A DNA stretch of 64,000 nucleotides from Candidatus Nanoarchaeia archaeon (GTDB lineage Archaea > Nanobdellota > Nanobdellia > Woesearchaeales > JANQNE01). Below, in pieces: positions 5,648 through 38,244 of this stretch. The position numbers and the translations under genes are program-made. The notes below the pieces were generated by a model. That model was not told the DNA's origin. It did not search any database and was given only the letters and a program-made list of their open reading frames with translations. The first letter of the stretch is position 1. Every line of letters starts with the position of its first letter. The DNA lies in contig JANQNE010000011.1 in assembly GCA_028279725.1 (NCBI GenBank), forward strand, positions 25,872 through 89,871, read 5' to 3'.

Positions 5648-5659
5648 TTGTATTCCCCC

Positions 5660-7354: not shown

Positions 7355-7382
7355 AATCCCCCTTTATTCTCTGAGAAAGCCC

Positions 7383-7404
7383 AGAGGTGTGTCTTATCAC
7401 CTCT
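7383..7404 (-). promoter_or_regulatory. perfect 7-bp hairpin/palindrome in the serA 5' leader
   Basis: AGAGGTG (7383-7389) and CACCTCT (7398-7404) flank an 8-nt loop. It lies between a minus-strand TATA (tttatataa) and the serA ATG. Confidence 0.3.
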
Positions 7405-7446
7405 TTGTCTGGATATTTGATGAGGTATTATATAAACCTTACCAAT

Positions 7447-7722: not shown

Positions 7723-7747
7723 GAAAGGTAGAAAGCAAGTAAAATAT

Positions 7748-8314
7748 TTAAATCTTTTTGAGGCTTTTTAAAACCTCGGAAGGAGATTTTTCCTCGAATT
7801 CTTTTGAATATTCTTTATATTCATCTGTCTCTTTTAGGAATTGGTTTATGAGATGGAGTGCCTGTGCACTTGTATAGTTAAGACAGTTTAGGATGTGTTT
7901 CATGCAGTTCTTTTCTGTGAATTTGCAGTATTTATCTTCTGGCTCTATGAAGATCTTCAGTTCTCCGTCAATCCTTCTGAAACCAATAGGAAAGATCTTG
8001 CATATCAGTGGTCTGACTGGATAGACAATGCATTTTTTGTCTTCTAAGAAGATGCATTCTTTGTTTTCTTTGCTTTTTAGCTGGAGGACTTTTCCATTGT
8101 CACAGTATTCAAAATAAGAATGGTCGCGGTCTTCCATAACTTCTTTCTGCTCTTCTGGATCCTGGCATATCGGGCCATAGAAACAGAATTCTTCTATCTT
8201 TTTTCCAGTATGCTTTGATATCCTGTCTGCATCTCTTAGTGTAAGAAATGTCCCGTAATCTCCAATACAGCAATGTTCTTTGCATGTCTCACAAGGATGC
8301 TTATTCTGGCTCAA
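7748..8314 (-). CDS. YkgJ/UPF0153-type cysteine-cluster (Fe-S or Zn) protein
   Basis: CETCKEHCC (CxxCxxxCC) plus CIFLEDKKCIVYPVRPLICKIFP, the signature of the CxxCxxCC family. Overlaps the upstream gene by 14 nt. Confidence 0.7.
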   Translation of the reverse strand: MSQNKHPCETCKEHCCIGDYGTFLTLRDADRISKHTGKKIEEFCFYGPICQDPEEQKEVMEDRDHSYFEYCDNGKVLQLKSKENKECIFLEDKKCIVYPVRPLICKIFPIGFRRIDGELKIFIEPEDKYCKFTEKNCMKHILNCLNYTSAQALHLINQFLKETDEYKEYSKEFEEKSPSEVLKSLKKI

Positions 8315-14311: not shown

Positions 14312-14342
14312 CTTTTTAAATAGAGAGTTCTTGTTTTGTCCT

Positions 14343-21703: not shown

Positions 21704-22183
21704 ATGGGAAAGAAAAAACTAGAATCTATGGTTAAGAGTAGTGTTAAGTATCTGATAGAAGGGGCAGTCTTGGCTGCGAAAGAAAGATATGACGGTGCGT
21801 TAGAACATAGGGCAGCTGAATATGCTGTTGAGAGAGAAGGAAAGCTGACAAAGGACCAATATGAATTCTTATTTCATTGCATACATTGGTTTCTATATTC
21901 AAGCCCTGGAGAATATGGACAAAAGAAGAGGCTTGATCGTACAGATGCAAGGAGAAGTGGTGATAAGCAGTATTGGAAATTGTTGAATCCACGTGAGTTC
22001 TTCAATAATGGCGATGGTCCTAGGAAGGATTTTGATAGGACAATGAACAGATTAGCTGAATGTGCGTATAGGCAGGAGAAAGACTGGTTTGACGGAAGAT
22101 ATGCCAGTTATATGGATAAAGGCGGAGAAATCAACAGAACAGAAAGAGTTAAATTGTTAAAATCACTCGATATCAAAGAGTAG
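21704..22183 (+). CDS. hypothetical protein embedded in the purine cluster
   Basis: Start moved to MGKKKLES, which has SD GGGAGTGA and follows the guaA stop by 2 nt. No recognisable motif. Its 3' end overlaps the convergent purM by 21 nt. Confidence 0.5.
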   Translation: MGKKKLESMVKSSVKYLIEGAVLAAKERYDGALEHRAAEYAVEREGKLTKDQYEFLFHCIHWFLYSSPGEYGQKKRLDRTDARRSGDKQYWKLLNPREFFNNGDGPRKDFDRTMNRLAECAYRQEKDWFDGRYASYMDKGGEINRTERVKLLKSLDIKE

Positions 22184-23281
22184 ATCTTCTTTATCTTTTC
22201 CTTTACTTTTTATTTTTATTTTGTTTTCTTCGATGACTTTGCCTGCAATCTGGGCTTTTATGTTGAACTTTGCTGCTTCCTGGATAACTTTTTCTGGCTC
22301 TGGTGTTATTATTGCTAAGCCTTGGCCCATGTTCCATGTCCTGTATGCTTCTTTGTCTGCTATGTTTCCTAGTTCCTGGCAATATTGCATAGCTTTGCAT
22401 GGTTCGAAAAGATTGTCTAGTTCAGCTCCATAACCTGATGGTTTTAGGACTCTGCCAAGTTTTCCTGGCAATCCGCCTCCTGTGATATGAGAGACACCAT
22501 GGATCTTACAGCATCCTTCTGTCTTGAAACCACCATGCATATGAATAACAGCTTTTGAATATATTGTTGAAGGTATGAGGACTAAATTTCCTAATTTTTC
22601 TCCTTCAAATTCAAAATTGTGCCATTCTGGACCATGTTTTTGTTCAAAAACCTTTCTTGTAAGAGATAATCCGTTTGATCTGAAGCCTTTTTCTTCAAGA
22701 ACAACAACAGAATCTCCTAGCTGAACTTCTTTTCCTGTGAAAAGCTTGTTTTTGTTTGCAAACCATGCTATGCTGGAGCACCAATTGTACTTGAACTTTC
22801 CATAACCACCAACACCATCTCCAAGTTCAGCTAATTCTCCGTTGATTACTGCAACATTTGCTGCATCAGCAGCTTTTACATAGCCTTCTGCAAGTTGTTT
22901 TAGCTGTTCTATGTGTGATTCGTTTTCTTTTCCTAAAGAATTAACGTCAAGAACACTTCCGATAAGGACTGGTTCTGCTCCTCTTACTATTGCATCATCA
23001 CAGACCATTGCAAAAAGATCAAAGGCTATTGTCTTATGGTTGTTCATCCTCTGTGCAATCTCTACTTTTGTTCCGACTCCGTCAAAACCTATGCACATAA
23101 GGCTTCCTTCAGGAAGATTTCCGATGTTAATGGCTCTGACTCCTGAGAAATCATCAAATGGAACGATGATCTCTCCGATATTGCCTTTTCTGTTATCAAA
23201 GGTAAGCTTTGCAGCTTTGTACAATATCTTTGATGCATCATCTCCAAGTTCGATGTTAACTCCTGAGTCTTTATAGTCCAT
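22163..23281 (-). CDS. purM: phosphoribosylformylglycinamidine cyclo-ligase (AIR synthetase)
   Basis: DYKDSGVNIELGD, GFDGVGTKVEIA and HITGGG match the PurM pattern. Confidence 0.9.
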   Translation of the reverse strand: MDYKDSGVNIELGDDASKILYKAAKLTFDNRKGNIGEIIVPFDDFSGVRAINIGNLPEGSLMCIGFDGVGTKVEIAQRMNNHKTIAFDLFAMVCDDAIVRGAEPVLIGSVLDVNSLGKENESHIEQLKQLAEGYVKAADAANVAVINGELAELGDGVGGYGKFKYNWCSSIAWFANKNKLFTGKEVQLGDSVVVLEEKGFRSNGLSLTRKVFEQKHGPEWHNFEFEGEKLGNLVLIPSTIYSKAVIHMHGGFKTEGCCKIHGVSHITGGGLPGKLGRVLKPSGYGAELDNLFEPCKAMQYCQELGNIADKEAYRTWNMGQGLAIITPEPEKVIQEAAKFNIKAQIAGKVIEENKIKIKSKGKDKEDLLFDIE

Positions 23282-23282
23282 A

Positions 23283-24782
23283 TTAACCTCTGTCAGCTTT
23301 CTCCAGCTTTTCTATCTTTTCTTTGTTTTTCTTTTTTATCGCTTTCTGGATCTTCTCATTTGAGAGTCCTAAGATCTGTGCTGCATGTCTTGCTGCATTA
23401 GCAGGTCTTAAGATCAATGAGTTAGAGCTTCCTGGTGGATTCTCTAAGCAAGAAAAGCAATCATCTGCATCAGGAGGACAGCTGATCACTGGGTGAACGC
23501 TGTGGAATGATACAACTCCTGAAAGAGCATCTGTTCCTCCTGCAACAGAGATAAATACAACTGGTTCTTCAGACTGGTTGTATTTGTTTATGATCTCTTC
23601 ACATCTTCTTGGTTGTTTGTGTGCTGAGCAGATTCTTATGACTGATGCCAGTCCGTATTTGTTCAACTCTTCCTGGATCTTTTTCAGATGAGGCATGTCA
23701 CTGTCTGATCCTGCTATGATAACTACTAAGCCACCTTTGATGTATCCTTCTTTTCTTAGCTTTTGGATCATATCTGTGCTTACATCTGACTGAGGGAAAT
23801 TGAACTTATTTCCTGTCAGGCTTTCATATAAACTGATATATCTGTAAGCAACTTCTATTACATCTTTGTCTTCAAGTTCTGGCGGCTTTTCTGTTGATCC
23901 GTAAGCACCATATCCTTTTTCAACAAGAACATCTCTAACGAACTGTTTTGACAGCTCTTTTATCTTTAGCTGTGGTTTTTTCTTAAGAAGTTCTGTTACA
24001 TCTTTGTATCTTCCTGTATCCATCTCTTTCTTTATTCCTGTGTATTTGTTGTATTCTTCTATTGTACAGTATCTTGATGAATCTGGTGTGTTTGCTTCGT
24101 CAATCAGGTTGATCTTTCCTTTTTCGTCGATACCAAACTCATACTTTGTGTCAATGAAGATAAATCCTTTCTGTTCTGCCAGTTTTGATGCACGCTTAAA
24201 TAGTCTTATTGAGATATCTCTGAGCTGTGTTGCCAGTTTTTTTCCAAGCTTATCTGCCATGTATTCAAAGCTTACATTAACATCATGATCTCCATCTTCT
24301 GCTTTTGTAGCTGGAGTAAATAATGGTTCTCTAAGCTTTTGGTATCTTAGCAATGAATCTGAAAGCTTTATTCCGCAGAACTCTCTTTTTCCATCTTCGT
24401 AGTCTGCAGCCATGCTTCCCCAAACATATCCTCTTACAACGAATTCGAATGCAATCTTATTCATCTTTTTCTGGACAATAACATTTCCATGAGGGCTTCT
24501 TATGACAGCGTTTGGAACAATATCTGTTGTGTTGTCAAATGCCCATTGTGCGAAGAGGTTTAATGTTAATCCTTTGAAAGGGATCTGCCTGCTAAGTACA
24601 TGGTCAAAGCAAGATATCCTATCTGATGCCACCATCACTATAGGTTTTCCAACTTTTGGTGATGTAAAATGTACTTCTCTTACTTTTCCTGATTTATGTG
24701 TTCCAAGTTCTGGGATGTATCCTGAGAACAGGGTATTGTCTAAGTTTTCTTTGATTATTTTTTTGTATTTTTGTTCTTCCAT
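23283..24782 (-). CDS. purC-purE: bifunctional SAICAR synthetase (N) + class II-like AIR carboxylase PurE (C), PAICS-like order
   Basis: N: GKVREVH...VASDRISCFD...IPFKG. C: IIAGSDSDMPH, CSAHKQP, VAGGTDALSGVV...HPVISCPP, AAQILGLSN (animal PAICS-like strings). Confidence 0.85.
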   Translation of the reverse strand: MEEQKYKKIIKENLDNTLFSGYIPELGTHKSGKVREVHFTSPKVGKPIVMVASDRISCFDHVLSRQIPFKGLTLNLFAQWAFDNTTDIVPNAVIRSPHGNVIVQKKMNKIAFEFVVRGYVWGSMAADYEDGKREFCGIKLSDSLLRYQKLREPLFTPATKAEDGDHDVNVSFEYMADKLGKKLATQLRDISIRLFKRASKLAEQKGFIFIDTKYEFGIDEKGKINLIDEANTPDSSRYCTIEEYNKYTGIKKEMDTGRYKDVTELLKKKPQLKIKELSKQFVRDVLVEKGYGAYGSTEKPPELEDKDVIEVAYRYISLYESLTGNKFNFPQSDVSTDMIQKLRKEGYIKGGLVVIIAGSDSDMPHLKKIQEELNKYGLASVIRICSAHKQPRRCEEIINKYNQSEEPVVFISVAGGTDALSGVVSFHSVHPVISCPPDADDCFSCLENPPGSSNSLILRPANAARHAAQILGLSNEKIQKAIKKKNKEKIEKLEKADRG

Positions 24783-24806
24783 TTTTTCCTCCCCTATCCC
24801 TCTTTT

Positions 24807-25421
24807 TTATTTTTTGACTATAACTTTTCTTCCTTCAACCTTTATCTTTCCTTCTCCAAAAAGCTGTATAGCTTTAGGGTAAAGCTCTTTTTCTAATGTC
24901 TGGACCTTTTCTTTCAATGAATCTACTGTCTCGTCGTTCTCTATGTCTACTGTTCCCTGCATTATTATAGGTCCTGTGTCCATTCCTTCGTCAACAAAGT
25001 GGATTGTGCATCCGCTGACCTTACATCCATAGTTAAGGATGTCTTCATGTACTGACCTGTCCATTCCTGGGAATGAAGGCAGTAGTGAAGGATGAATGTT
25101 CATTATCCTGTCTTTATATTTGTTTGCAAACCATGGGCTAAAAAGACGCATATAGCCTACAAGGACTAAAAGTTCTACTTCTTCCTGGTCTAAGATCTCT
25201 GCAACTCTTTTGTCGTAGCTTTCTCTTGTGTCTTCATCTTTTTTGTACAATTCTATTCTTGTCTTGAATCCCTGGTTTTGTGCTCTTTCGATAGCATAGC
25301 ATTCTTTGTTTGCTAGGACAATCTTTAATTCTGCATCAAGCTCTTTGTTCTTTATAGCATCCATTATAGCCTGAAGATCTGTTCCGTTTGTTGATGCCAT
25401 TACAGCTATTTTTATCGTCAT
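24807..25421 (-). CDS. purN: phosphoribosylglycinamide formyltransferase (folate-dependent)
   Basis: [53 protein letters not shown]. Confidence 0.9.
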
Positions 25422-26287
25422 TTTAGATTATTTTGCATCTTGTATGCAGTTAATGTGTTTTCTAGTAATGATGCTATTGTCATAGGGCCAACTCCACCTG
25501 GAACAGGTGTTATGTGTGAGCATTTGCCTTTTACGTTTTCAAAGTCAACATCGCCTTCAAGATGATATCCTTTTTCTGAGTCATCATCAACTCTGTTAAC
25601 TCCTACATCAATTACTACTGCTCCTTCTTTTACCATATCTGCTGTTACTAGTTTTGGTCTTCCTACTGCTGCAACTAATATATCTGCTGTCTTGCAGATC
25701 TCTGCCATATTTTGTGTTCTTGAATGGCAGATGGTTACTGTTGCGTTTTTTTGGAGTAGTAATGTCGATACTGGTTTTCCTACGATATTGCTTCTTCCTA
25801 TCACAACAGCATGTTTTCCGCTTATGTCTGTTCCAGTTGATTCTATAAGTGTTATTATCCCTTTTGGTGTGCATGAGACAAGGCTATTGTTTCCTGTGAA
25901 TAGATTTCCCATATTTACAGGATGAAATCCATCAACATCTTTCTCTGGGATTATTGTGTTTATGACTTTAGTGTCTGAGATCTGTTTTGGAACAGGCATC
26001 TGGACTAAAATTCCATTGACTGTTTCGTCGTTGTTAAGCTTTTCTATGAGTTTTAGCAGCTCTTCTTCTGGAATGTCTTTATCTAATTCATATTTGAATG
26101 ACTGAATGCCTACTTCTCTGCATTTCACTTCTTTCATGTTGACATATACTTTTGAAGCTGGATTTTCCCCTACTAAAACAACTGCTAATCCTGGCTTTTT
26201 TTCCAGTTGTGAAACTTCTTCTTTGATCTTTTCTCTTATCTCAGCTGAGATCTTGTTTCCGTCTATCAATTCCATTTTATCTATCAC
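25418..26287 (-). CDS. folD: bifunctional methylenetetrahydrofolate dehydrogenase/methenyl-THF cyclohydrolase
   Basis: [42 protein letters not shown]. Confidence 0.9.
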
Positions 26288-27445
26288 CTAAAAATGTGCA
26301 AAGCATCTTTCTGTAGTATAGACCATTGCCATATCATGATCATTTGCTGCTTCAACAACCTCTAGGTCTTTTACAGAACCTCCTGGCTGTATTATTGCAG
26401 TTATACCTTGATTTGCTATAAGGTCAACTGAATCTCTGAAAGGAAAGAATCCATCTGATGAGATGACTGCTCCTTTTAGGGGATTTTCTGACAGTTTTTC
26501 TTTTGATGCTATGACATTTAATGAATCATATTCAATATTTTCCCTATCCATTGCTTTTTGGTATGCTTTTAGGATAGCCTGCTCAACAGCTCCAACTCTT
26601 TCTTGCTGTCCTGAGCCTATTGATAGGGAAACACCATTCTTAACAATAACAACACCATTACTTCTTACACCTAGGTTGATGTACCATGATGTTAGCAGGT
26701 CTTGGAGTTCCTGTATTGAAGGCTCTCTTTTTACTGAAACTTCTTTTTCATCTGTGTTTATTGTCGGATGTGTTATAAGATCTGATGGATCTTTTATCTT
26801 GCATAAGTAAGGTTTTTGGATGATTAATCTTCCTGCACCCATTATTTTGACGTCGAAGAGTCCTGTTGTGTCATCTCCAGCAAATTTTGGAACTTTGTCT
26901 AGGTTTTCGAATGTGAGCAGTCTCATGTTTTTCTTTTCGCTCAGGATATCTTCTGCTTCTTTCTGGAATCCAGGAGCTGCAACAGCTTCAACATAGCTTG
27001 TCATTATCTCTTCTGCTGTTTCTTTGTCAACTTCTCTGTTGAAAACTACTACTGAGCCGAATGCACTTCTTGCATCAGCATCTCTTGCATTTTTGTAGAT
27101 GTCTTTCAATGAGTTGTCCTGATATTGAGTTGCAAACCCCGAAGGTATTATGTGTTTCATAACGCAAACTGAAGGATGATTGAAGAACTTCAGTATTTCC
27201 ATAGCTCTTATTACATCCATTACATTTGTTGCTGATAATCCACCTTTTCCTGATTTTAGAAGCTGAATATTTGTAAGGTCAGCTATTGTTGATCCTTTGA
27301 ACTTGTATTCTGCTCCTGGCTGATTTGGATTTTCTCCATATCTTAGATCCATCTCTTTGACTAATTCTAACGGCAGTTCATCCGGATAGTCTCCAGCATT
27401 TACTGTCTTGTACATATTTTTTAGGTCGCTTAAGTTTTCTCCCAT
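26288..27445 (-). CDS. purH: AICAR formyltransferase domain protein (C-terminal half of PurH as a separate gene)
   Basis: LRYGENPNQPG, the GSGQQERV-type block (IGSGQQERVGAV) and C-terminal ERCFAHF. Confidence 0.85.
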   Translation of the reverse strand: MGENLSDLKNMYKTVNAGDYPDELPLELVKEMDLRYGENPNQPGAEYKFKGSTIADLTNIQLLKSGKGGLSATNVMDVIRAMEILKFFNHPSVCVMKHIIPSGFATQYQDNSLKDIYKNARDADARSAFGSVVVFNREVDKETAEEIMTSYVEAVAAPGFQKEAEDILSEKKNMRLLTFENLDKVPKFAGDDTTGLFDVKIMGAGRLIIQKPYLCKIKDPSDLITHPTINTDEKEVSVKREPSIQELQDLLTSWYINLGVRSNGVVIVKNGVSLSIGSGQQERVGAVEQAILKAYQKAMDRENIEYDSLNVIASKEKLSENPLKGAVISSDGFFPFRDSVDLIANQGITAIIQPGGSVKDLEVVEAANDHDMAMVYTTERCFAHF

Positions 27446-27446
27446 T

Positions 27447-28169
27447 CTAATCCCTCTTTATTTCATAGCATTTCTCAAGATCTGCTATCTCTGTTTTTTG
27501 TATCAGCTTATTGACTGATGCCATATAATCTGTTATCATGCTTGATGCTTTTTTTGCCAAGTTAAGGCGAGTTGCAAGTGAGATCGCTCCGTTGTTTGTG
27601 TCTAGTTCTTCAATTAGTGTTTTGTATTCTGACGGATCTGTTATCAATGCAGTGCTTACTAATGCTTTTCTTGCATTATGACTCATGCTTGGCCCTCCTA
27701 CGTCTATATTTTGCCTTAGGATCTCAAAAGTTGAGTCAGGCTTTGCCATCATCTCATCCAATGGATAAAAGTTGACTATTAATGCATTGATGTAGTTGAT
27801 GTTATGTTCTTTCATGAATTCATCGTCTGATTCTGTATGATTGTGTGCTAAAAGTCCTGCATGTATAACTGGATGTAGTGATTTAACTAATCCTGTCTTC
27901 ATCTCAGGGTATTTTGTAACTTCTGAGACTTCTACAACATTAAGCCCTGCTTCTTTTACTATCTTGTATGTTCCTCCTGTTGATATGAACTGGACATCTG
28001 GGTTTTTTTCTGCTATAAAACCTAAAAGTCCGTTTTCTGGAATTCCTTCTATTATTGGTCCATCTTTTCTTTTGTTGGAAACTAATCCTTCTTTGTTTGT
28101 ACAGCTGACCAATACATGCTTTAGCTGTATAAGGTCATCAACTTTTTTTACAAATTCAATTTCAGCCAT
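27447..28169 (-). CDS. purH: IMP cyclohydrolase, MGS-like domain protein (N-terminal half of PurH as a separate gene)
   Basis: VLVSCTNKEG, FISTGGTYK, GLVKSLHPVIHAGLL, VNFYPL, NIDVGGPSM. The TAG stop is followed after 1 nt by the ATG of the AICARFT gene, in another frame. Confidence 0.8.
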   Translation of the reverse strand: MAEIEFVKKVDDLIQLKHVLVSCTNKEGLVSNKRKDGPIIEGIPENGLLGFIAEKNPDVQFISTGGTYKIVKEAGLNVVEVSEVTKYPEMKTGLVKSLHPVIHAGLLAHNHTESDDEFMKEHNINYINALIVNFYPLDEMMAKPDSTFEILRQNIDVGGPSMSHNARKALVSTALITDPSEYKTLIEELDTNNGAISLATRLNLAKKASSMITDYMASVNKLIQKTEIADLEKCYEIKRD

Positions 28170-28738
28170 TATTTACACCTTATCACTCTTTTTTCGGTAA
28201 TTATCATATCCATCGGGATGTCATAATCTTCTGTTGGTATATTTTTTGTTATCTGTTCTTCAAATGCAAGCCCTATTTTTAGGGAGTTTCTGTCTTTCAG
28301 GAATCTGTCGTAAAAACCTTTTCCGAATCCTATCCTTGCTCCGCTTTGGTCAAAAGCGATGCCTGGGACGAGGACGATGTCCAGGTTTTCTTTGTATTCC
28401 TCTTTTTTGATTGGTTCGAGTACTCCGAAGTTCCCTTCTTTTAGGTCATTGAAGTCAGATAATTTTGATATCTTTATGTTGTTTTCTTCGACAAATGGGA
28501 TGATTACTGTCTTTTGCTGCAGTTGTTCTTTGATTAATTCTATTGTGTTTACCTCACTTTTTAGTGAAAGGTAAGACATCACTATGTTTGCTTTTTTGAA
28601 CTCATCCAGATCTTTTAGATGTTGGATGATTGTCTTGCTTTTTTCTGAGATCTGTTCTTCCGGTATGTTATCTCTTATGGACCTTATGGTGTTTCTGATC
28701 TCTTGTTTGTTTATTCTGTTCATAGTGCGATTCTTCAC
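28169..28738 (-). CDS. 5-formyltetrahydrofolate cyclo-ligase
   Basis: LVPGIAFDQSGARIGFGKGFYDRFL is the MTHFS signature. Confidence 0.8.
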   Translation of the reverse strand: MKNRTMNRINKQEIRNTIRSIRDNIPEEQISEKSKTIIQHLKDLDEFKKANIVMSYLSLKSEVNTIELIKEQLQQKTVIIPFVEENNIKISKLSDFNDLKEGNFGVLEPIKKEEYKENLDIVLVPGIAFDQSGARIGFGKGFYDRFLKDRNSLKIGLAFEEQITKNIPTEDYDIPMDMIITEKRVIRCK

Positions 28739-31404
28739 TTTTGCCTATCAAGCTCTTTTTTTGCAATATCTTTTCTAAAAAACATGCCGTCGAAGTTTAT
28801 GTCATTTATTTTTGTGTATGCTGTATCGACGGCATCTTTAAGGGTTGATCCTAATGTGATTACATTTAATACTCTTCCTCCATTTGTGAGGATCTTTCCG
28901 TTATCTTTCTTTGTTCCAGCGTGAATCACCTGTGCTCCACTTATGTTATCTAAACCTTTTATCTCTTTTCCCTTTTCATATGAACCAGGATAACCTCCTG
29001 ATGCTAGTACTATGCTTACGCAGTGTTTTTCAGACCAGTCTAGTTTCATAGCTCCTAGTTTCTTGTCTATTACTGCGTTCATTACGTCAAGTATATCATT
29101 GTTTAATCTTGGAAGGATAACCTGTGTTTCCGGATCTCCAAATCTGCAGTTGAATTCTAAGATCTTTAGGCCGTCTTTTGTTTTCATAAGTCCGACGTAG
29201 AGGACTCCTTTGTATTCTATGCCTTCTGCTTTTGTTCCAGCTATGAATGGCTTAATTATCTTTTCTTCCATCTCTTTTTCAAGTCCGTCTAATATTGGTG
29301 CTGGTGAGTAAGCTCCCATCCCTCCTGTATTAGGGCCTTTGTCTCCTTCATAGATTGGTTTGTGATCCTGTGAATATACCATTGGCTTGAATGTTTCTGA
29401 GTCTACGAAGACTAAGTAGGACCCTTCTTCACCTACAAGACATTCTTCTACAACTATTGATGAAGATGCATCTCCGAATTTGTTTGCTTTTAGGCATTCT
29501 TCTGCAAACTTTACTGCTTCTTCTACTGTGTTTGCGACAAGAACTCCTTTTCCAGCAGCTAGTCCGTCTGCTTTTACGACAATTGGTGCTCCCTGCTTTT
29601 CGATGTATGCTTTTGCTTTTTCAAAATCAGTGAATTCATCAAATTCAACTGTTGGAAGATTATATTTTTTCATGAATCTTCTTGCAAATGCTTTTGATCC
29701 TTCAAACTGTGATGCTTTTTTGTTAGGGCCGAAGACTCTTATCCCTGCTTTTTCAAGTTCGTCAGCTGCTCCGTTAACTAGCGGAGCTTCTGGACCTATG
29801 ATTGCAAGATCTATCTTCTTTTCTTTTGCAAACTTGACTAAAGCTTCATTATCATTTTGGTCGATATCATGACAGCAAGCTACCTGGCCAATACCTGGAT
29901 TTCCCGGGACTGCGTATAGTTTGTTTAATCTGTCAGATTCTGTGACTTTTAATGCAATAGCATGCTCTCTTCCGCCTGAACCAACTATCATTACGTTAAG
30001 TTTGGTGTCTAATGTTGTCTGCTCTTCTGTTCTCTGGCAACCAAGGCATTGCTGCTGTGATTCTGATACTGGTTCTGGGTATTCTCCTGTTAAACATGCC
30101 ATACATACATCCCTCCTTGTAGCATTCTTGATATTATCAACTGTTGCATATACTAAATTATCTGCTTCAAGATATTCTCTTATCTGTTCTATTGATTTAT
30201 CTGAAGCTATAAGCTCTTTTTTTGTCGCCATGTCTATCCCATAGAAGCATGGGAATTTTATAGGAGGACAAGCAGAAACAAATGTAACTTTTCTAACTCC
30301 TCCATCTTTTAATGTTCTTACTATCCTTTTTGATGTTGTTCCCCTTACAATGCTGTCATCAACTACAGCAACACTCTTGTTTTCAAGTATACTTATTACA
30401 GGCCTTAGTTTTCTTCTTACTGAGTCATGCCTTGTCTTTTGTGATGACATTATGAATGTTCTTTGTATATATTTATCTTTGATCAGACCTTCCCTATATT
30501 TTACAGCAAGATCTTCACTTAATTTTATAGCAGCTGTCCTTCCTGAATCTGGAACTGGGACTACAACATCGATGTCTTTTTGGTCCATCTGCTCGCTCAT
30601 CAGTTTTCCAAGAGCTAATCTTGTCTTGTATACTGATCTGTTCTCTATCATGCTGTTCGGGCTTGCAAAATATATCCATTCAAACATACAATGAGCTTTT
30701 TTCTCCTGTTTTAGGATCTTGCTTTCTATAACCAAGTCTTTTGAGATAAAAACAGCTTCTCCTGGCTCTATATCTCTGACATAATCATGATCAATAACCT
30801 GAAATGCTACAGTTTCTGAAGCAAATATGTATGAATCTCCTCTCTTTCCGAGAACTAAAGGCCTTATGCCTCTTGGATCTCTTATCGCGAATATACCTTT
30901 GTCTGCTATCATTCCAACAATTGAGTAAGCTCCTCTTACCTTATCCATGAAGTGCTTTGCAGCTGCAAAGAAATCTCCATGCTGTTCGTAATGCTCTGCG
31001 AATATTCTTAGAAGAACTTCACCGTCAACAGAGGTTTCAAGATGTTTTCCTTTTTTTTGGAATTCTTCTTTTAGGTCGAAGTAGTTTATTGTGTTTCCGT
31101 TCTGAGCCATAGCAACTTTTGGGTTGATCTTTGTTGTAAGAGGTTGTGCGTCGCACAACATTCCTTTTCCCTGTGTTGCATATCTTGTGTGGCCGATGCC
31201 CATCTTCCCTTGTAATAGGTTTGCGTCTCTTGCCTTGAATACTCTGTGAACAGCATCCATCTCTTTTTTTGTGAAGAATTCGTCTTTTACGTTTGTTACT
31301 ATGCCGCATGCATCCTGGCCTCTATGCTGCAATGACATCAAGCTAGTTACTGCATCCTCAAAAACTTCATCATCTTTTGAAACAATACCAATAATTCCGC
31401 ACAT
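28735..31404 (-). CDS. purF-purD: fusion protein: amidophosphoribosyltransferase PurF (N) + phosphoribosylamine-glycine ligase PurD (C), 889 aa
   Basis: N: MCGIIGIV, HTRYATQG, VDDSIVRGTT, CMACLTGEYP. C: VMIVGSGGREHAIA, VVKADGLAAGKGV, EFNCRFGDPE, TNGGRVL. Confidence 0.9.
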   Translation of the reverse strand: MCGIIGIVSKDDEVFEDAVTSLMSLQHRGQDACGIVTNVKDEFFTKKEMDAVHRVFKARDANLLQGKMGIGHTRYATQGKGMLCDAQPLTTKINPKVAMAQNGNTINYFDLKEEFQKKGKHLETSVDGEVLLRIFAEHYEQHGDFFAAAKHFMDKVRGAYSIVGMIADKGIFAIRDPRGIRPLVLGKRGDSYIFASETVAFQVIDHDYVRDIEPGEAVFISKDLVIESKILKQEKKAHCMFEWIYFASPNSMIENRSVYKTRLALGKLMSEQMDQKDIDVVVPVPDSGRTAAIKLSEDLAVKYREGLIKDKYIQRTFIMSSQKTRHDSVRRKLRPVISILENKSVAVVDDSIVRGTTSKRIVRTLKDGGVRKVTFVSACPPIKFPCFYGIDMATKKELIASDKSIEQIREYLEADNLVYATVDNIKNATRRDVCMACLTGEYPEPVSESQQQCLGCQRTEEQTTLDTKLNVMIVGSGGREHAIALKVTESDRLNKLYAVPGNPGIGQVACCHDIDQNDNEALVKFAKEKKIDLAIIGPEAPLVNGAADELEKAGIRVFGPNKKASQFEGSKAFARRFMKKYNLPTVEFDEFTDFEKAKAYIEKQGAPIVVKADGLAAGKGVLVANTVEEAVKFAEECLKANKFGDASSSIVVEECLVGEEGSYLVFVDSETFKPMVYSQDHKPIYEGDKGPNTGGMGAYSPAPILDGLEKEMEEKIIKPFIAGTKAEGIEYKGVLYVGLMKTKDGLKILEFNCRFGDPETQVILPRLNNDILDVMNAVIDKKLGAMKLDWSEKHCVSIVLASGGYPGSYEKGKEIKGLDNISGAQVIHAGTKKDNGKILTNGGRVLNVITLGSTLKDAVDTAYTKINDINFDGMFFRKDIAKKELDRQK

Positions 31405-31406
31405 TT

Positions 31407-32231
31407 TTATCTATCCTTAAAATAGTCAACAGCATTCTGGAAAATCCTGAAGTTTGAGCTAATTAAATCAGGGATCTCTTTGTTTTCTCTTTTAGCGATC
31501 TCTTTTTTCAGATGGAATTCCGGCTCGCTGATTGAGTATATTGCTCTTTCTGGATGAGGCATCATTCCCATTAGCCTTCCAGTCTTGTCGCAGATAGCTG
31601 CTATATCATTTAAAGCTCCATTAGGGTTGATAGGGTAAACATTTTCTGCATCATCTCCTGCTTCATTGCAGTACGTGAAAACTATCTGGTTGTTCTTTTT
31701 TAATTCTTCAAGTGTGTTTTTATCGCATGTGAATCTTCCTTCTCCATGAGCTATAGGGAGATGTGTCTGTTCTATTCCTTTTGTGAATATACAATTAGAA
31801 TTGTTGTTTTTTATGTTTACCCATAAGCATTCATATCTGTTGCTTGTGTTTGATTCTAATGAGCTGATTCTTTTTCCGTAGTCTCCATCTGTAGCGAATA
31901 ATCCTAAATGGGTCATGACCTGGAATCCGTTGCAGACTCCGAGTATCAATTTTCCTGAGTTTATGAACTCTAAAAGATCTTCCCAAAGGTTGTTTTTTAT
32001 CTTGTTTGCAAAAGCATTTCCTGAACCTGTGTCATCTCCATACGAGAATCCTCCTGGAAACATAATTATATTGTAGTCAGACATCTTTTTCTTTTTTGAG
32101 ATAAGGTCGTTTATGTGGACAATTTCGCATTCAGCTCCTGCTTTTTCAAAAGCATGAGCACTTTCTTTCTCGCAGTTGATCCCATATCCTGACATAATCA
32201 ATACTTTTGGTATCATATTAATAGTCCTCAA
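31407..32231 (-). CDS. purQ: phosphoribosylformylglycinamidine synthase, glutaminase subunit
   Basis: FPGGFSYGDD, GVCNGFQ (catalytic Cys), MMPHPER. Confidence 0.9.
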   Translation of the reverse strand: MRTINMIPKVLIMSGYGINCEKESAHAFEKAGAECEIVHINDLISKKKKMSDYNIIMFPGGFSYGDDTGSGNAFANKIKNNLWEDLLEFINSGKLILGVCNGFQVMTHLGLFATDGDYGKRISSLESNTSNRYECLWVNIKNNNSNCIFTKGIEQTHLPIAHGEGRFTCDKNTLEELKKNNQIVFTYCNEAGDDAENVYPINPNGALNDIAAICDKTGRLMGMMPHPERAIYSISEPEFHLKKEIAKRENKEIPDLISSNFRIFQNAVDYFKDR

Positions 32232-35178
32232 ACCTTTTTTTGTATATTTTTTCTAATTTTTCAATGTCTGTCTTGATTACTTGTTCTTCTTTGTTGTTTA
32301 TTATGAACTCATTGTCTTCTTTTACTGTTCCTATCTTTGCTATGTCGAAGTCGCTCATTGCTTTTACAAATTCATCCTGGTCTTTAGGGTTGATCGTTAC
32401 GATGAATCTGGACTGTGATTCTGAATAGAATATCTTTTCTATTGGCAGGTTATCGTTTGGTGCTTTGCTTAAGTCTGTTTCCGCTCCAAGCTGTCCTGCG
32501 ATTGCCATCTTTGCTAATGTGATCAGTAGTCCGCCTTGATTGACTGGAGCACATGCACTGAACATTCCTTTTTTGTTTAACTGGAACATTGTTTCGTAAA
32601 GTTTTCTTGCTTTTTGTGCATCTACTTTTGGTGACTTTGCTCCGAACTTATCGAATGCTCTATAGAACTCGCTTCCACCACATTCGTCTTTCGTCATTCC
32701 TATGGTGTATATCAGATCTCCCGGAAGCTTGAAGTCCATCGTTATTGTATCTTTTGCATTGTCGATTATGCTTATGCTTGAGATCATCAATGTTGGAAGT
32801 ACTGAAATCTTTATTGAGTTATCTTTTTCGTCAAATCCTTTGAAATCGTTGAACATGCTGTCTTTTCCTGAGATAAATGGTGTTTTGTAGATGGTTGCAT
32901 AATCATAGCATGCTTGTGCTGCGTCTTTTAGCTGGCCCATACGTTCTGGCTCGTTTGAACTGCACCAGCAGAAGTTGTCCATGAGTGCAAGATGGTCTAT
33001 GTTTCCGCCGACAGCAACACAGTTTCTTATTGAAGTGTCTATAGCACATGCTGCCATATCATAGCAGTTTATCTCGCTTAGTCTTGGATAAAGGCATTGT
33101 GACATAACAGCTGCTTTATTGCTGCTGAACAAAGGCTTTACAACTGAAGCTGCTCCGTTGACTCTGCCTTTTCCCTGTAATGGTTTTATGACTGAGTTAT
33201 TCTGAACTTCATGATCATACTGTTTTGATATAAATTCAAAGCTGCAGTTGTTGTGATTTCCCAGGATCTTTTCGAACAGTGCTTTTTGGTTGTCTATTGT
33301 TATTTTTGGCTCTTCTGTCCTGTAAGGATAAGGTTTTGTGATAAGTTTTCTTTTTGGAAGTCCGTCATGTAAGAATTCCATGTCTAAGTTGAATATTTCT
33401 TTTCCGTTGAAATTCACTATAGCTTTTTTTGTGTCGTTGAAATTTCCAATTACTGTTGATTCAACTCCTCTGCTTTCCATAAGGTCCATGAATTCTTTTA
33501 GCTTGTTGTCTGGAACTGATAATGTCATACGTTCCTGTGATTCTGAAATCCATGTTTCCCAAGGCGGAAGTCCTGGATATTTTAGAGGAACTTTTTCTAA
33601 GTCTACTATGAAACCACCACATTCTCTTGCCATCTCTGCAACTGAACAGGATAATCCTCCTGCTCCATTGTCTGTTATGCTATTGTAAAGTTCTTTATCT
33701 CTTGCTTCTTTTACAATTGCATCCGAGAGTTTCTTTTGAGTGATCGGATCTCCTATCTGAACAGCTGTTGCTGGTGAGCCTTCATCCATCTCTTCTGATG
33801 AGAATGTTGCTCCGTGAATACCATCTTTTCCAACTCTTCCGCCGATCATGACAATGTTGTCTCCTGGCTGAGCCTGTTTGTCCTGGCTTGGATTTCCGTT
33901 AGGAAGTTTTCTTGGTAAAAGTCCTACAGTTCCTACGAATATGAGAGGTTTTCCCTTGTAGCAATCGTCGAAGTATACAAATCCTGTTGGTGTTGGAATA
34001 CCTGAGCAGTTTCCTCCTACATTTACTCCATGTATTACTCCATCCATGATCTTTCTTGGTGTTAAAGCTGGGTTTGTCTTGTTCTTTCCTCTGTAAATGA
34101 ATGTCTTGTCTTCTGGTCTTCCTAAGCAGAAGCCGTATTTGTTAACTATTGGAAGTGCGCCCATACCGAAGCCGATAGTGTCTCTGTTAACTCCTACAAT
34201 TCCAGTTATAGCTCCTCCAAATGGATCTAATGCTGAAGGACTATTATGTGTTTCAGCTTTGTCTGTGATCATCCAGTCGTCATTGAATATTATTCCTCCT
34301 GAATTGTCTTTGAATACTGATAAGCAGAAATCTTTATCTCCTAAGTCTTCTCTTACTTTTATTGTCGCTGCTTTGATGAACTTTTTGTATATTCCTTCTT
34401 TTATGTCATCTATCTCTCCTGCAAATAAAGTGTGTTTGCAGTGTTCTGACCATGTTTGTGCGATTGATTCCAGCTCAATATCAGTTGCTTTTCTTCCTTC
34501 TTTTTTGTAATAAGCCTGTATTGCGTGTAAGTAGTCTAAGTCTAAAGCTAAAGGGCCTCTTCTTGTGTTTGTTACAGGATCAGGAATTCCTTTTTTTCCA
34601 AGTTCTGTAAGAATTTCATCACTGACATTCAGATCAATTGCAATTACGTTTTGTTCTTCTTTTATGTTTACTTTTGGAACAATATAATCCATGCCGTTGT
34701 CTTCAGTGTATTGTTCTGCTGATTTGATGTGGAAACGTTCTATTAAAGTGTTGATTAGTTCTTTTGCAATTATTTCTATGTCTTCTTTCTTTAGGTTGTC
34801 TGATTTTATTAAGATCAGTTTAGAAGTGAATACTTTGTTTCTTCCAATGTTGATCTTGAATAGGTCGTTTATGATTTCTGTAGTTGTGTTTGCTACATTG
34901 TCTGTAACTCCTGGCAAGAATCCCAGTTCTAATGCCCAGCTAAACTCTTTTTTTGATGGTGAGTTGATCCTTGGAGTTTCTACGATAGGATTGTGTAATG
35001 CGTTAGCTATTGCTGTTATTTGTTCTGCTGAGAAATCATACTGGATAGTGTATACTTTGCTTACTTCAATAGAGGTTTCGAAGCCCAGCGAGAACAGCTT
35101 TTTCTCTAATATTTTGGCTTCAGAGCCCTTCTCCTTGGAATCTATAGAAATCCTAAATATCTGTCCATTTTCTTGCAT
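32218..35178 (-). CDS. purL: phosphoribosylformylglycinamidine synthase II with an N-terminal PurS-like extension (no glutaminase domain)
   Basis: Start placed at MQENGQIF, with SD AGGGGGTTGATC just upstream; the track ORF extends to 35214. ETHNSPSALDPFGGA, PurL PurM-like repeats, and an extra N-terminal domain of roughly 200 aa. Confidence 0.85.
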   Translation of the reverse strand: MQENGQIFRISIDSKEKGSEAKILEKKLFSLGFETSIEVSKVYTIQYDFSAEQITAIANALHNPIVETPRINSPSKKEFSWALELGFLPGVTDNVANTTTEIINDLFKINIGRNKVFTSKLILIKSDNLKKEDIEIIAKELINTLIERFHIKSAEQYTEDNGMDYIVPKVNIKEEQNVIAIDLNVSDEILTELGKKGIPDPVTNTRRGPLALDLDYLHAIQAYYKKEGRKATDIELESIAQTWSEHCKHTLFAGEIDDIKEGIYKKFIKAATIKVREDLGDKDFCLSVFKDNSGGIIFNDDWMITDKAETHNSPSALDPFGGAITGIVGVNRDTIGFGMGALPIVNKYGFCLGRPEDKTFIYRGKNKTNPALTPRKIMDGVIHGVNVGGNCSGIPTPTGFVYFDDCYKGKPLIFVGTVGLLPRKLPNGNPSQDKQAQPGDNIVMIGGRVGKDGIHGATFSSEEMDEGSPATAVQIGDPITQKKLSDAIVKEARDKELYNSITDNGAGGLSCSVAEMARECGGFIVDLEKVPLKYPGLPPWETWISESQERMTLSVPDNKLKEFMDLMESRGVESTVIGNFNDTKKAIVNFNGKEIFNLDMEFLHDGLPKRKLITKPYPYRTEEPKITIDNQKALFEKILGNHNNCSFEFISKQYDHEVQNNSVIKPLQGKGRVNGAASVVKPLFSSNKAAVMSQCLYPRLSEINCYDMAACAIDTSIRNCVAVGGNIDHLALMDNFCWCSSNEPERMGQLKDAAQACYDYATIYKTPFISGKDSMFNDFKGFDEKDNSIKISVLPTLMISSISIIDNAKDTITMDFKLPGDLIYTIGMTKDECGGSEFYRAFDKFGAKSPKVDAQKARKLYETMFQLNKKGMFSACAPVNQGGLLITLAKMAIAGQLGAETDLSKAPNDNLPIEKIFYSESQSRFIVTINPKDQDEFVKAMSDFDIAKIGTVKEDNEFIINNKEEQVIKTDIEKLEKIYKKRFEDY

Positions 35179-35269
35179 GATCAACCCCCTATAGTTAGCT
35201 GAAAAATGACTCATATATAAATATTATGGCTACCAGCCAGTACTAAAGATATACTCAAGAATATAGTTT

Positions 35270-35704
35270 TTACCCTCTAAGTGAAGGATGTAATGGGTAA
35301 GAAGGTGTTATGTATGTGTCTCCTCTTGATTCTACTTTTATCAATGTGTTATCAGCTACCCTAAAATCTAACGGGTCTTTGATTGCATTATCCCTGGCTT
35401 CGAATTTTCCAAGATAACATTCTTGAACTGCTTGTTTTAAGTGCGGTTCACAAGCAAAGATTTCAGCATAAGGTGTTGCTTCCATGATTGCCTTTGCAAC
35501 ATCAAGACTTGAGCTTCCTTCTTTTACAATGTTTGCCAGATCAACCATATCATAGAGCTTAATTGTTCCTGCTGGTTCTTTTTCACACTTCTTACATTCT
35601 CCATAAGGAAGATGCATAGTCTCGGTCAACCTATTTCTATCCATCGCTTTTCTAAGTGGAATGGATTTTTCCAAACCTTTTATGAATTCTCCTAAATCTG
35701 ACAT
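35270..35704 (-). CDS. hypothetical protein between purL and purB
   Basis: 144-aa ORF with CKKC and several Cys. No recognisable family. Confidence 0.5.
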   Translation of the reverse strand: MSDLGEFIKGLEKSIPLRKAMDRNRLTETMHLPYGECKKCEKEPAGTIKLYDMVDLANIVKEGSSSLDVAKAIMEATPYAEIFACEPHLKQAVQECYLGKFEARDNAIKDPLDFRVADNTLIKVESRGDTYITPSYPLHPSLRG

Positions 35705-35787
35705 AGAACAAAAGGATTACTAAGTTGTATATAAATATTATTGTTTTTGAGTATTCTAGAATGGTAACGTTACGTTAATCGTAAGAA

Positions 35788-37227
35788 CTAAACATTAATT
35801 GATGTGTTTGATTTTCCGACCAATTCTTTGTATTTTTCCAGAACTGGTTTGACTTCTTTCTGGATGAATTCTTCTGTCTGTTCTTTTGCTGCTCCTGTGA
35901 ACCTTACTGGGTTGTCTAATAGTGAGTTTAGGTAGTTTTCATCTACTGGTATTGACTGGTCTTCTGCTAATCTTTTGAATAAGTCATTCGGTTTTCCTTC
36001 TAGTTTTACTGATTTTGCTGCATCTACTGAATGTTTCTTTATTATTTCGTGCATCTCTTGTCTGTCATGTCCTTGTTTTGCCAATTCCATCAGTATAACT
36101 TCTGTTGACATGAACGGCAGTTCTGCATCAAGATGTTTTTTGATCTGAGCTGGATAGACAACCATGCCGTCTGTTATGTTTTGATATAGTTTTAAGATTG
36201 CGTTTGCTAGAAGGAAAGACTGAGGTATACTGATCCTTCTTATGGATGAATCATCTAGTGTTCTTTCAAACCACTGGTTAGCGTGAATATGTGAGAAATC
36301 TATTTGAAGATTGATGAGTTTTCTTGCCAATGCAGTCATACGTTCAGAACGCATTGGGTTCCTTTTGTATGCCATAGCTGAAGATCCTGTCTGTGATTTT
36401 GCAAATGGCTCTTCCATTATCTTAAGATTTGACATAAGTCTCATGTCAACTGCGAATTTATGCGCTGATTCTGCGATTCCTGACAGAATTTTTGCAACTA
36501 TAGTGTCGAATTTTCTTGTGTAAGTCTGTCCTGTAGTTGGATATGATTCTTCAAAACCTAATTTTTTGCTTACTAAGCTGTCTAATTGCTTAACTTTTTC
36601 ATAATTGTCGTTGAAAAGTTCTGTGTATGATGCCTGAGTTCCTACTGTTCCTTTTGCTCCTCTTGCTTTTAATTCTATCTGTTCTAATTGTTTTAGGTCT
36701 AGTAAAAGATCTTGAATGTAAAGTGTGATTCTTTTTCCTATGGTTGTCGGCTGTGCTGGCTGGTAATGTGTGTATCCTAGTGTTGCTAATGATTTGTTTT
36801 CTTCAGCAAATTTGGATAAGTTGTTTATTGTGTTTATTAATCCTGCTTTTATGATCTTCAGTGCTTCTCTTATTTGGATTAGATCTGTGTTGCAGCAGAC
36901 GAACTGAGAAGTTGCTCCTAAATGGATTATTCCTTTTGCTTTTGGGCAGTGTGTTCCGTATTCAAACACATGAGCCATGACGTCGTGTCTGATTTCTTTT
37001 TCTTTTTCTTTTGCGATGTCATAGTTGATTGTGTTCTGAGCAGCTTTTAGCTCTTCGATCATCTCTGGAGTGATCTGGGAGAGTCCTAGTTCCATCTGAG
37101 ATTCAGCTAAAGCTATCCAGCACTTTCTCCATGTTGAGAACTTGAAATTATCTGAGAATATCTGCTGCATCTCTTTGTCAGTATATCTTCCTACTAACGG
37201 ATCCTGGTAAACTTCGTGATTGCTCAT
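35788..37227 (-). CDS. purB: adenylosuccinate lyase
   Basis: GATSQFV, TGSSAMAYKRNPMRSE (fumarate-lyase signature). 479 aa. Confidence 0.9.
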   Translation of the reverse strand: MSNHEVYQDPLVGRYTDKEMQQIFSDNFKFSTWRKCWIALAESQMELGLSQITPEMIEELKAAQNTINYDIAKEKEKEIRHDVMAHVFEYGTHCPKAKGIIHLGATSQFVCCNTDLIQIREALKIIKAGLINTINNLSKFAEENKSLATLGYTHYQPAQPTTIGKRITLYIQDLLLDLKQLEQIELKARGAKGTVGTQASYTELFNDNYEKVKQLDSLVSKKLGFEESYPTTGQTYTRKFDTIVAKILSGIAESAHKFAVDMRLMSNLKIMEEPFAKSQTGSSAMAYKRNPMRSERMTALARKLINLQIDFSHIHANQWFERTLDDSSIRRISIPQSFLLANAILKLYQNITDGMVVYPAQIKKHLDAELPFMSTEVILMELAKQGHDRQEMHEIIKKHSVDAAKSVKLEGKPNDLFKRLAEDQSIPVDENYLNSLLDNPVRFTGAAKEQTEEFIQKEVKPVLEKYKELVGKSNTSINV

Positions 37228-37287: not shown

Positions 37288-38244
37288 CTATGACACCTTA
37301 AATCTATTCTTAGTAATAGAAGTTATGTCTTCTCCAACTGCCTTATTTACAATATCTCTTAGAAAGTTTATTGACTCATCTTCCCCAATATCTTTTAATT
37401 CATTTAATATGACTCTAATCTTATTTTTTCCATATGTTTCTTCAATATATTTCCAAAAACAATATCCTGTGTAATACCAGTAAATACGTGGATTTTCAGG
37501 AGCTTTTGATAAATCTGAATAATCATGTACTCTTTTTATTTGAGGATCCCCAAAGTCTGATCCATACCACCCATCACTTCTACACTCAATTCCTATGGCT
37601 CTTCTTTCCTGCTCATCTATATAAGTTGCTATCCCTTCGTTCGCCCACCCAGGAATAATGGTATCTGAAACAAATACATGGGTCATTTCATGTAAGTTTA
37701 AACAAACTTGTTCTTCATAGATTTTCTCTTTAAAATAACCCTCATTATCAACTCGTCTTTTATAAGCTTCCATATTAAGAAAAGTCGTTACCCCACTAGA
37801 TGTAGCTCCTGAGAATGTGTTCTCATCATCTCCGACCAAAACTAGATAATAAATAAATTCAGACTTTGTAGAATTGGGCAAATCAATTCCTAATTCTTTC
37901 TTCAGGAATTTGATACAAGTTAAAGAATCTTGCAAATAATCTTCAGCTAACCACTTACCAAATTCCTTGTTGTAAACTATAGTTACATTCTCTCTAGAGA
38001 TTATATCTTCATCTTCACCAGGAACCCCTTCGCAATCTATATAACATCTTTGCCAAGTCTCTTTACCATTGCATATTCCATCACCACAAAAAGGAGGTCT
38101 TTCTTCTTTGACTTTCTCATACTCATTAATAACAGCTGGTGCTTCTTCCTCAATAATTATGATGGGGGTGTCTTTCTCCTTAGTTTCCTGATAAGCACAA
38201 CCAGTAATCAATAAAACAAAAACTATGAAAACGACTTTTATCAT
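37288..38244 (-). CDS. secreted lipoprotein, putative zinc metallopeptidase
   Basis: Lipobox LLITGC, the Cys module CGDGICNGKETWQRCYIDCEG and HExxH as LHEMTHVF. Confidence 0.6.
   Translation of the reverse strand: MIKVVFIVFVLLITGCAYQETKEKDTPIIIIEEEAPAVINEYEKVKEERPPFCGDGICNGKETWQRCYIDCEGVPGEDEDIISRENVTIVYNKEFGKWLAEDYLQDSLTCIKFLKKELGIDLPNSTKSEFIYYLVLVGDDENTFSGATSSGVTTFLNMEAYKRRVDNEGYFKEKIYEEQVCLNLHEMTHVFVSDTIIPGWANEGIATYIDEQERRAIGIECRSDGWYGSDFGDPQIKRVHDYSDLSKAPENPRIYWYYTGYCFWKYIEETYGKNKIRVILNELKDIGEDESINFLRDIVNKAVGEDITSITKNRFKVS

Follow-up and report, generated by a model that had tools for sequence, protein, structure and literature searches.

The fused purF-purD gene

A stretch of 64,000 nucleotides from a Candidatus Nanoarchaeia archaeon (contig JANQNE010000011.1, positions 25,872 to 89,871 of the forward strand; the whole stretch is referred to below as the window) contains a single open reading frame (ORF) in which amidophosphoribosyltransferase (PurF) is followed by glycinamide ribonucleotide (GAR) synthetase (PurD), the two being the enzymes of the first and second steps of purine synthesis. 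The purF-purD ORF occupies positions 28735 to 31404 of the minus strand, on which all features of the fusion lie, and comprises 889 codons from an ATG start to a TGA stop (28735-28737). There is no in-frame stop inside it in the list of ORFs, and the reading frame is uninterrupted in the DNA around the junction of the two parts (29850-30150).

Both parts are complete by profile. The NCBIfam model TIGR01134 (purF) matches residues 2-443 over profile positions 1-432 of 432, with 440 bits against a cut-off of 350, and TIGR00877 (purD) matches residues 469-885 over profile positions 1-424 of 425, with 541 bits against a cut-off of 288. The Pfam domains follow in the order GATase_6/7, Pribosyltran, GARS_N, GARS_A and GARS_C. 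The G+C content of the window is about 37%, a composition in which long ORFs rarely occur by chance; an ORF of 889 codons at this composition, with profile E-values of 1e-132 and 1e-162 for its two halves, is far beyond chance expectation. A protein identical to it at 100% (P0001) is present in a public protein collection, and no second purF or purD was found in the 64-kb window. A preliminary description of this DNA had proposed that a complete PurF is joined to a complete PurD in one chain. The full-length matches to both profiles bear this out, as do the intact catalytic and iron-sulphur residues described below, and the motifs which it quoted (MCGIIG, VDDSIVRGTT, CMACLTGEYP and CLGC) are all found in the 889-residue protein. 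There is very little doubt that the gene is a genuine single-chain PurF-PurD fusion. Judged from the conservation of its residues, it is also highly probable that both activities are functional in the fused chain.

The PurF half

The PurF half is composed of an N-terminal nucleophile (Ntn) glutaminase domain (residues 2-235 approximately; 30700-31401; Pfam GATase_6/7) and a phosphoribosyltransferase domain (residues 236-443 approximately; 30076-30699; Pfam Pribosyltran). Conservation was assessed in an alignment (A1) of the window protein and 31 other fused homologues (32 fusions, with identities from 100% to 39%). In the glutaminase domain, Cys2, R74, Y75, N102, G103 and D127 align with Cys1, R73, Y74, N101, G102 and D127 of the Escherichia coli PurF structure 1ecb; C2 is nearly invariant among the 32 fusions and the other five residues are invariant. 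In the phosphoribosyltransferase domain, the loop that binds phosphoribosyl pyrophosphate (PRPP), VDDSIVRGTT (D349-T357), has the form that identifies type I phosphoribosyltransferases, an acidic pair with an S/T-rich turn after it, and its residues D349, D350, S351, I352, V353, R354 and T357 are all invariant.

Four cysteines, C239 (30688-30690), C386 (30247-30249), C434 (30103-30105) and C437 (30094-30096), fall on the ligands of the [4Fe-4S] cluster in the alignment to Bacillus subtilis PurF (1ao0), and all four are invariant. By these residues the PurF module belongs to the iron-sulphur subclass of the B. subtilis type, the cluster itself being predicted. The fusion shares with the stand-alone iron-sulphur PurF of B. 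subtilis (1ao0, 1gph) the cysteine nucleophile, the glutaminase residues, the PRPP loop and the four cluster cysteines, and the folds correspond with a target-normalised template modelling score (TM-score) of about 0.85. It differs from the B. subtilis enzyme in that it has no propeptide, the chain starting with Met-Cys, and in that the chain goes on past the PurF tail into PurD.

In Ntn amidotransferases the catalytic cysteine requires a free alpha-amino group. Because of this requirement, PurF must be the N-terminal partner, and PurF-first is the predominant order among the fusions, which fits it. In the window protein the nucleophile would be exposed by the removal of Met1, which is assumed.

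The PurD half

The PurD module (residues 469-889; 28738-30000; TIGR00877) contains the Pfam domains GARS_N (29701-29997), which carries the P-loop GSGGREHA, GARS_A (29125-29700), which is the ATP-grasp domain, and GARS_C (28756-29019). The ATP-grasp lysine-glycine motif is kept. The residues G475, G477, R479, E480, E750 and N752 are invariant in the 32 fusions, as is the whole PurD signature motif RFGDPE (R754-E759). The signature R[LF]GDPE (PS00184) and the N-terminal P-loop are diagnostic of PurD, and the signature separates functional from decayed PurDs (PMC3261824). Stand-alone PurDs of the bacterial type (2yw2, 2xcl and 1gso) are 50-51% identical to the PurD half and have the P-loop, the ATP-grasp motif and RFGDPE in common with it. 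Unlike in these enzymes, the N-terminus of PurD in the fusion is not free, being covalently joined to the tail of PurF.

The junction

At the junction (residues 444-468, EPVSESQQQCLGCQRTEEQTTLDTK; 30001-30075), the end of the PurF chain passes directly into the first beta-strand of PurD. The preliminary description had placed here a linker of about 30 residues containing CLGC. The CLGC tetrapeptide is indeed present in the window protein (residues 453-456; 30037-30048), although it is not conserved, whereas the spacer is some 25 residues long and represents PurF's own tail instead of a dedicated linker. In four stand-alone relatives (P0034, P0036, P0041 and P0167) the CxxC...YP motif is followed by the same S-x-E-Q...L-G-x-x-R tail; on this comparison, the junction is the tail with which PurFs of this subfamily natively end, and no linker has been inserted. 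Mean pairwise identity is lower in the junction (0.46) than in PurF (0.65) and PurD (0.72).

Two further candidate features of this region were considered and rejected. A metal or redox site at CLGC is not supported, for only 3 of the 33 fusions inspected have both cysteines. Likewise, an internal start from which a separate PurD could be made was rejected, since M472 occurs only in the window sequence and is replaced by leucine in all relatives.

Predicted structure

The fusion was modelled with AlphaFold2 as a monomer from a 32-sequence alignment. The mean predicted local distance difference test score (pLDDT) of the model is 88.7. On the structure of Aquifex aeolicus PurD (2yw2), the PurD half gives a target-normalised TM-score of 0.95 in Foldseek, and the PurF half gives 0.85-0.88 on the PurFs of E. 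coli, Arabidopsis and B. subtilis. The stretches of lowest confidence lie at about residues 300-330 in PurF and at 683-686 in PurD, and in the model they are probably mobile active-site loops. No chain in the PDB spans both halves, either by fold or by sequence.

Distribution of the fusion

In a collection of 5.8 billion proteins, with clusters derived from NCBI, JGI, ENA and Logan, the identical protein was found together with another 32 clusters of full-length fusions, whose identities run from 89% down to 40%. A homologue with 89% identity was obtained from a different sample, and independent projects contributed 30 more clusters with identities of 49-74%. The preliminary description had named a stop or frameshift in the linker as evidence against the fusion. 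None is found: the ORF is continuous, and the read-through is repeated in dozens of independent assemblies.

Among the clusters related to the window protein the sole name is 'phosphoribosylamine--glycine ligase [Candidatus Woesearchaeota archaeon]', at 71-74% identity. Searches seeded with two fusion representatives added about 20 clusters in other clades, with the names Candidatus Diapherotrites archaeon, Patescibacteria group bacterium and Candidatus Saccharimonadales bacterium, the last with the order reversed (PurD-PurF). Altogether, PurF and PurD occur in one chain in at least 53 clusters (90% identity) from DPANN archaea and bacteria of the candidate phyla radiation (CPR). A HMMER search of 1.84 billion representatives at 50% identity gave 7,718 proteins at E <= 1e-30, and only five fusion representatives were seen within the best 150 of these matches. 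The architecture is therefore rare. The fusion is recurrent beyond this genome, and it is neither widespread nor characterised. The preliminary description had allowed that it might prove both; few fusions stand among the best matches, and no description was found in the literature searched.

Single chains of the order PurF-PurD-PurN (P0171, P0270 and P0299; 1101-1212 residues) were also encountered, in which steps 1, 2 and 3 stand in pathway order. At one distant locus (L081), purN directly follows a purF-purD fusion gene, which makes this arrangement a plausible precursor of the triple fusion. Other PurF fusions are present in uncultured DPANN and CPR lineages, whose genomes are likewise small (P0271-P0287, P0288, P0289, P0291, P0310 and P0333), the combinations being PurF-PurN (about 20 clusters), PurF-PurM, PurC-PurF, PurD-PurF (Saccharimonadales) and PurF-PfkB-PurD. 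Of all these chains, PurF-PurD and PurF-PurD-PurN are the only ones in which PurF is N-terminal and the steps joined are consecutive. The PurD-PurF and PurC-PurF chains are puzzling, because a C-terminal PurF would need proteolysis to expose its cysteine, and this would sever the fusion.

A GC-rich, bacterial-looking PurF-PurD of 916 residues with a propeptide-type N-terminus (P0032) lies at positions 5001-7751 of a single 9.6-kb contig (L082). Its neighbours, among them DUF1491 and cytochrome b, are not pur genes, and in its PurD half it shares 54% identity with stand-alone PurDs of bacteria. This protein may represent a fusion that arose independently in bacteria, or else a chimeric assembly.

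Origin of the fusion

The PurF and PurD halves of the window protein are each about 51% identical to stand-alone enzymes, as compared with 42% (PurF half) and 34-37% (PurD half) to the fusions of a second clade, clade B. The PurF halves of clade B, in turn, each resemble different stand-alone PurFs (up to 60%) more than they resemble one another. As the halves are nearer to stand-alone enzymes than to those of other fusion clades, the fusion therefore arose several times; a rough neighbour-joining tree agrees with separate origins. At least one Woesearchaeota genome (L002) keeps a stand-alone PurF, which is 56% identical.

Among the matches listed for GTDB species representatives, many genomes have purF followed by purD as separate genes; the matches listed do not include the window's own clade and have no bearing on which GTDB taxa carry the fusion. 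All 18 of the spanning or near-spanning GTDB matches that were checked proved to be adjacent, separate purF and purD genes, and they were not counted as fusions. Such adjacent pairs occur in Bathyarchaeia, Iainarchaeia, a single-cell archaeon and an Elusimicrobiota bacterium. In some of them the two genes meet in frame at TAAATG, or overlap at GTGA or ATGA, and from these sequences it would take one substitution, or an insertion or deletion of one base, to fuse the pair. The fusion has probably originated by read-through of adjacent purF and purD genes that were coupled in translation, the purF stop being lost or bypassed.

Comparison with known multifunctional purine enzymes

The multifunctional purine enzymes listed in published reviews and surveys are PurD-PurM-PurN, PurD-PurM, PurC-PurE, the PurD-PurC of Francisella, the haloarchaeal PurN-PurH1 and PurE-PurE' (PMC8449271, PMC3261824). 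A natural PurF-PurD fusion is absent from these published lists (PMC8449271, PMC3261824) and was not met in full-text literature searches, in which the matches were either shorthand for operons or unrelated, though an earlier mention may exist. Searches of the literature for Woesearchaeota in combination with the enzyme names or purine biosynthesis also gave no description of one. The fusion stands outside the set that the preliminary description had named (PurD-PurM-PurN and PurC-PurE), with neither a solved structure nor a description in the literature searched.

Like the window fusion, GART of animals, Ade5,7 of fungi (PurD-PurM), PAICS, Francisella PurD-PurC and haloarchaeal PurN-PurH1 carry out several steps in one chain. 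In contrast to it, none of the known multifunctional enzymes listed includes a PurF part, and steps 1 and 2, which are separated by the unstable intermediate phosphoribosylamine (PRA), are combined in none of them. PurD is N-terminal in GART, whereas it is C-terminal in the window fusion. The latter consists of PurF and PurD only and does not match the composition of GART, Ade5,7, PAICS or ATIC.

The sequences of the fusions are already public, under the NCBI and JGI names 'phosphoribosylamine--glycine ligase' or 'amidophosphoribosyltransferase', that is, under the name of a single enzyme only. The architecture, made of two known enzymes, is undescribed, recurrent and, in DPANN and CPR genomes, systematically under-annotated. 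Because of the single-enzyme names, pathway reconstructions for DPANN and CPR organisms may mistakenly conclude that step 1 or step 2 is missing.

Transfer of phosphoribosylamine

The hand-over of PRA from PurF to PurD has been inferred from kinetics since 1995. PRA has a half-life in the range of seconds (PMC7668255). For the E. coli enzymes there is kinetic evidence for transfer from PurF to PurD, yet no stable complex has been detected; gel filtration, cross-linking and affinity methods all failed to reveal one, and coupling between the enzymes of A. aeolicus was poor in vitro (PMC10912719, PMC3261824). The docking model of 1998 for E. coli PurF and PurD (PMC10912719) concerns the same enzymes and the same problem of hand-over. 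While no stable complex is detected in E. coli, the association in the window fusion is covalent and obligatory.

The explanation preferred here, which we consider moderately likely to be correct, is that the gene encodes a real bifunctional enzyme, in which a tethered PurD consumes the PRA made by PurF. The PurF module would form PRA from PRPP and glutamine, and the PurD module would ligate glycine to PRA with ATP. The fusion would place one consumer of PRA beside each producer, at a strict 1:1 ratio and with a short path between the active sites, and less PRA would consequently be lost by hydrolysis. The hand-over would proceed by tethered proximity rather than through a sealed tunnel. In enzymes that have such a tunnel, for instance tryptophan synthase and carbamoyl-phosphate synthetase, the active sites are connected by an enclosed path, and the quaternary arrangement is fixed. 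Channelling through the fusion is plausible in these terms, and a kinetic advantage in PRA transfer is put forward tentatively. The tether could matter more in very small cells with few copies of each enzyme.

Several observations weigh against PRA transfer as the basis of the fusion, or at least against a precise form of it. According to the theory of proximity channelling, tethering alone gives little gain at steady state. The predicted template modelling score (pTM) of the AlphaFold2 model, from which the orientation was judged, is 0.58, and although each half is modelled confidently, the mutual arrangement of PurF and PurD is not fixed by the model. The junction is modelled as one helix (residues 448-466) with pLDDT of only 62-72, and its length differs between clades, with P0121 (about 8 residues) and P0025 (about 75) at the extremes. 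A junction that is variable and less conserved fits a tether and not a precise channel. Moreover, PurF has further fusion partners in PurN, PurM and PurC, none of which consumes PRA, and the window has other fused or extended genes (PurC-PurE, an extended PurL and AsnB-Dph6; see below), so that a general bias toward fusion could explain the gene without any benefit in PRA transfer.

The last two observations lead to a serious alternative, namely that the fusion is neutral and results from compaction in the small genomes of DPANN and CPR organisms, in which stop codons were lost and the enzymes act independently with no benefit from channelling. On this view the fusion would persist merely for being harmless and unlikely to be split once more. 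The genes of the operon, which are 2 nucleotides apart or overlapping, would suit such a process, and so would the PurL extension, which is possibly PurS-like; the inconstant junction and the lack of a confidently predicted geometry between the domains are also what independent enzymes would lead one to expect. On the other hand, PurF-PurD has persisted in one clade while its members diverged to about 50% identity, and this consecutive pair has been fixed independently several times, also as PurF-PurD-PurN (steps 1-2-3). Compaction, furthermore, does not fuse everything, as the same operon still has PurH in two separate genes. On balance, neutral fusion is regarded as rather unlikely.

A true structural channel, with the PurD site docked over the phosphoribosyltransferase site of PurF, probably on a PurF tetramer, and with a sequestered path for PRA, goes further than the tethered enzyme preferred here. 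It would accord with the direct-transfer kinetics of the E. coli enzymes and with their docking model, in which a PurD monomer sits on a PurF dimer (PMC10912719). It would also accord with the repeated fixation of the architecture, and the short junction helix of the prediction, with about three further residues before the first strand of PurD, would limit the freedom of PurD. Nevertheless, the pTM of the monomer model gives no support for a fixed interface, a junction whose length differs so much between clades (about 8 to about 75 residues) is difficult to reconcile with one, and in one relative a whole PfkB domain stands between PurF and PurD. A structural channel is thus improbable.

It is very improbable that one module is catalytically dead and serves as a regulator or scaffold for the other, because every residue known to serve catalysis or ligand binding in either module is invariant, the scores of the two halves lie far above the equivalog cut-offs, and the window holds no other purF or purD to supply the missing activity. 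An artefact of assembly, sequencing or gene calling that joined two genes can practically be dismissed, for even though the source is evidently metagenome-derived, and purF and purD lie adjacent, one stop codon apart, in many other genomes, the ORF is continuous, and the 89% homologue and the 30 clusters at 49-74% all have a homologous tail and an uninterrupted junction.

If the preferred explanation, a bifunctional enzyme with a tethered PurD, is taken as the starting point, a stronger form of it would be a defined (PurF-PurD)n assembly in which the PurD site is docked over the PurF site and PRA never reaches bulk solvent. Such an assembly is doubtful. If true, it would provide the first structural picture of the hand-over from PurF to PurD, and it would explain why the fusion, including its extension with PurN, has been fixed repeatedly in ultra-small cells. 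The fusion of consecutive enzymes is unsurprising in itself, and the value of the present case lies in the particular pair. With the partners held permanently together at 1:1, the natural fusion makes the thirty-year-old question of PRA channelling experimentally tractable.

The purine operon and neighbouring genes

The fusion gene is part of a purine operon (22163-37227, minus strand), which was recognised from NCBIfam and Pfam scans and from the sequences of the gene junctions. The order of the genes is purB, a 144-residue unknown ORF, purL with an N-terminal extension, purQ, purF-purD, 5-formyltetrahydrofolate cyclo-ligase, inosine monophosphate (IMP) cyclohydrolase, 5-aminoimidazole-4-carboxamide ribonucleotide (AICAR) formyltransferase, folD, purN, purC-purE and purM. 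The start of purF-purD lies 2 nucleotides from the stop of purQ, and its TGA stop shares nucleotides with the GTG start codon of the gene that follows. The genes for IMP dehydrogenase, purA and guaA lie just upstream of the operon on the opposite strand. Within about 21 kb (16540-37227), every step from PRPP to the monophosphates AMP and GMP is thus represented, with IMP dehydrogenase, PurA and GuaA on the plus strand and the pur operon, together with FolD and 5-formyltetrahydrofolate cyclo-ligase, on the minus strand; PRPP synthetase was not looked for. By gene content, this region is a complete folate-dependent de novo purine pathway. No purine riboswitch or other regulatory RNA was found near the operon in an Rfam scan of the window. 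The lineage of the window is often said to lack nucleotide synthesis. Lineages with the fusion are usually regarded as dependent on hosts for nucleotides, and a fusion inside a complete purine operon bears on the autonomy of some such organisms.

Some other genes of the operon have unusual architectures. PurC and PurE are fused in a chain of 499 residues (23283-24782, minus strand), with succinyl-AICAR synthetase at residues 30-267 and 5-aminoimidazole ribonucleotide carboxylase at 353-489; this is the domain order of eukaryotic PAICS, here in a probable archaeon. PurH, on the other hand, is split into an IMP cyclohydrolase (27447-28169, minus strand; 240 residues) and an AICAR formyltransferase (26288-27445, minus strand; 385 residues), encoded by genes 1 nucleotide apart. 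The order of the split genes is that of fused PurH, with the cyclohydrolase upstream, and PurH is also split at the distant fusion-bearing locus L081. One and the same operon therefore has PurF and PurD fused, yet PurH split.

PurL (32218-35214, minus strand; 998 residues) has an N-terminal extension of about 220-235 residues before the formylglycinamide ribonucleotide amidotransferase linker domain. The extension is probably PurS-like, judged from a faint PurS match in the L081 homologue. With its separate purQ, the PurL of the window falls between two known forms of PurL, the one of three subunits and the large one of a single chain. The 144-residue ORF between purL and purB (35270-35704, minus strand) has no Pfam or NCBIfam match, and an ORF of 318 residues at 37288-38244 (minus strand) has no Pfam match.

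Elsewhere in the window, an ORF of 1100 residues (41910-45212, plus strand) has as its sole Pfam match a weak, sub-threshold response-regulator receiver. An AsnB-Dph6 fusion of 697 residues (14331-16424, plus strand) combines GATase_7 and Asn_synthase with a diphthamide synthase domain (residues 470-692), and this Dph6-type domain is consistent with an archaeal host. A tRNA of 102 nucleotides (59835-59936, plus strand) was detected by Rfam with 51.6 bits and was not reported by ARAGORN; it may be an intron-containing archaeal tRNA.

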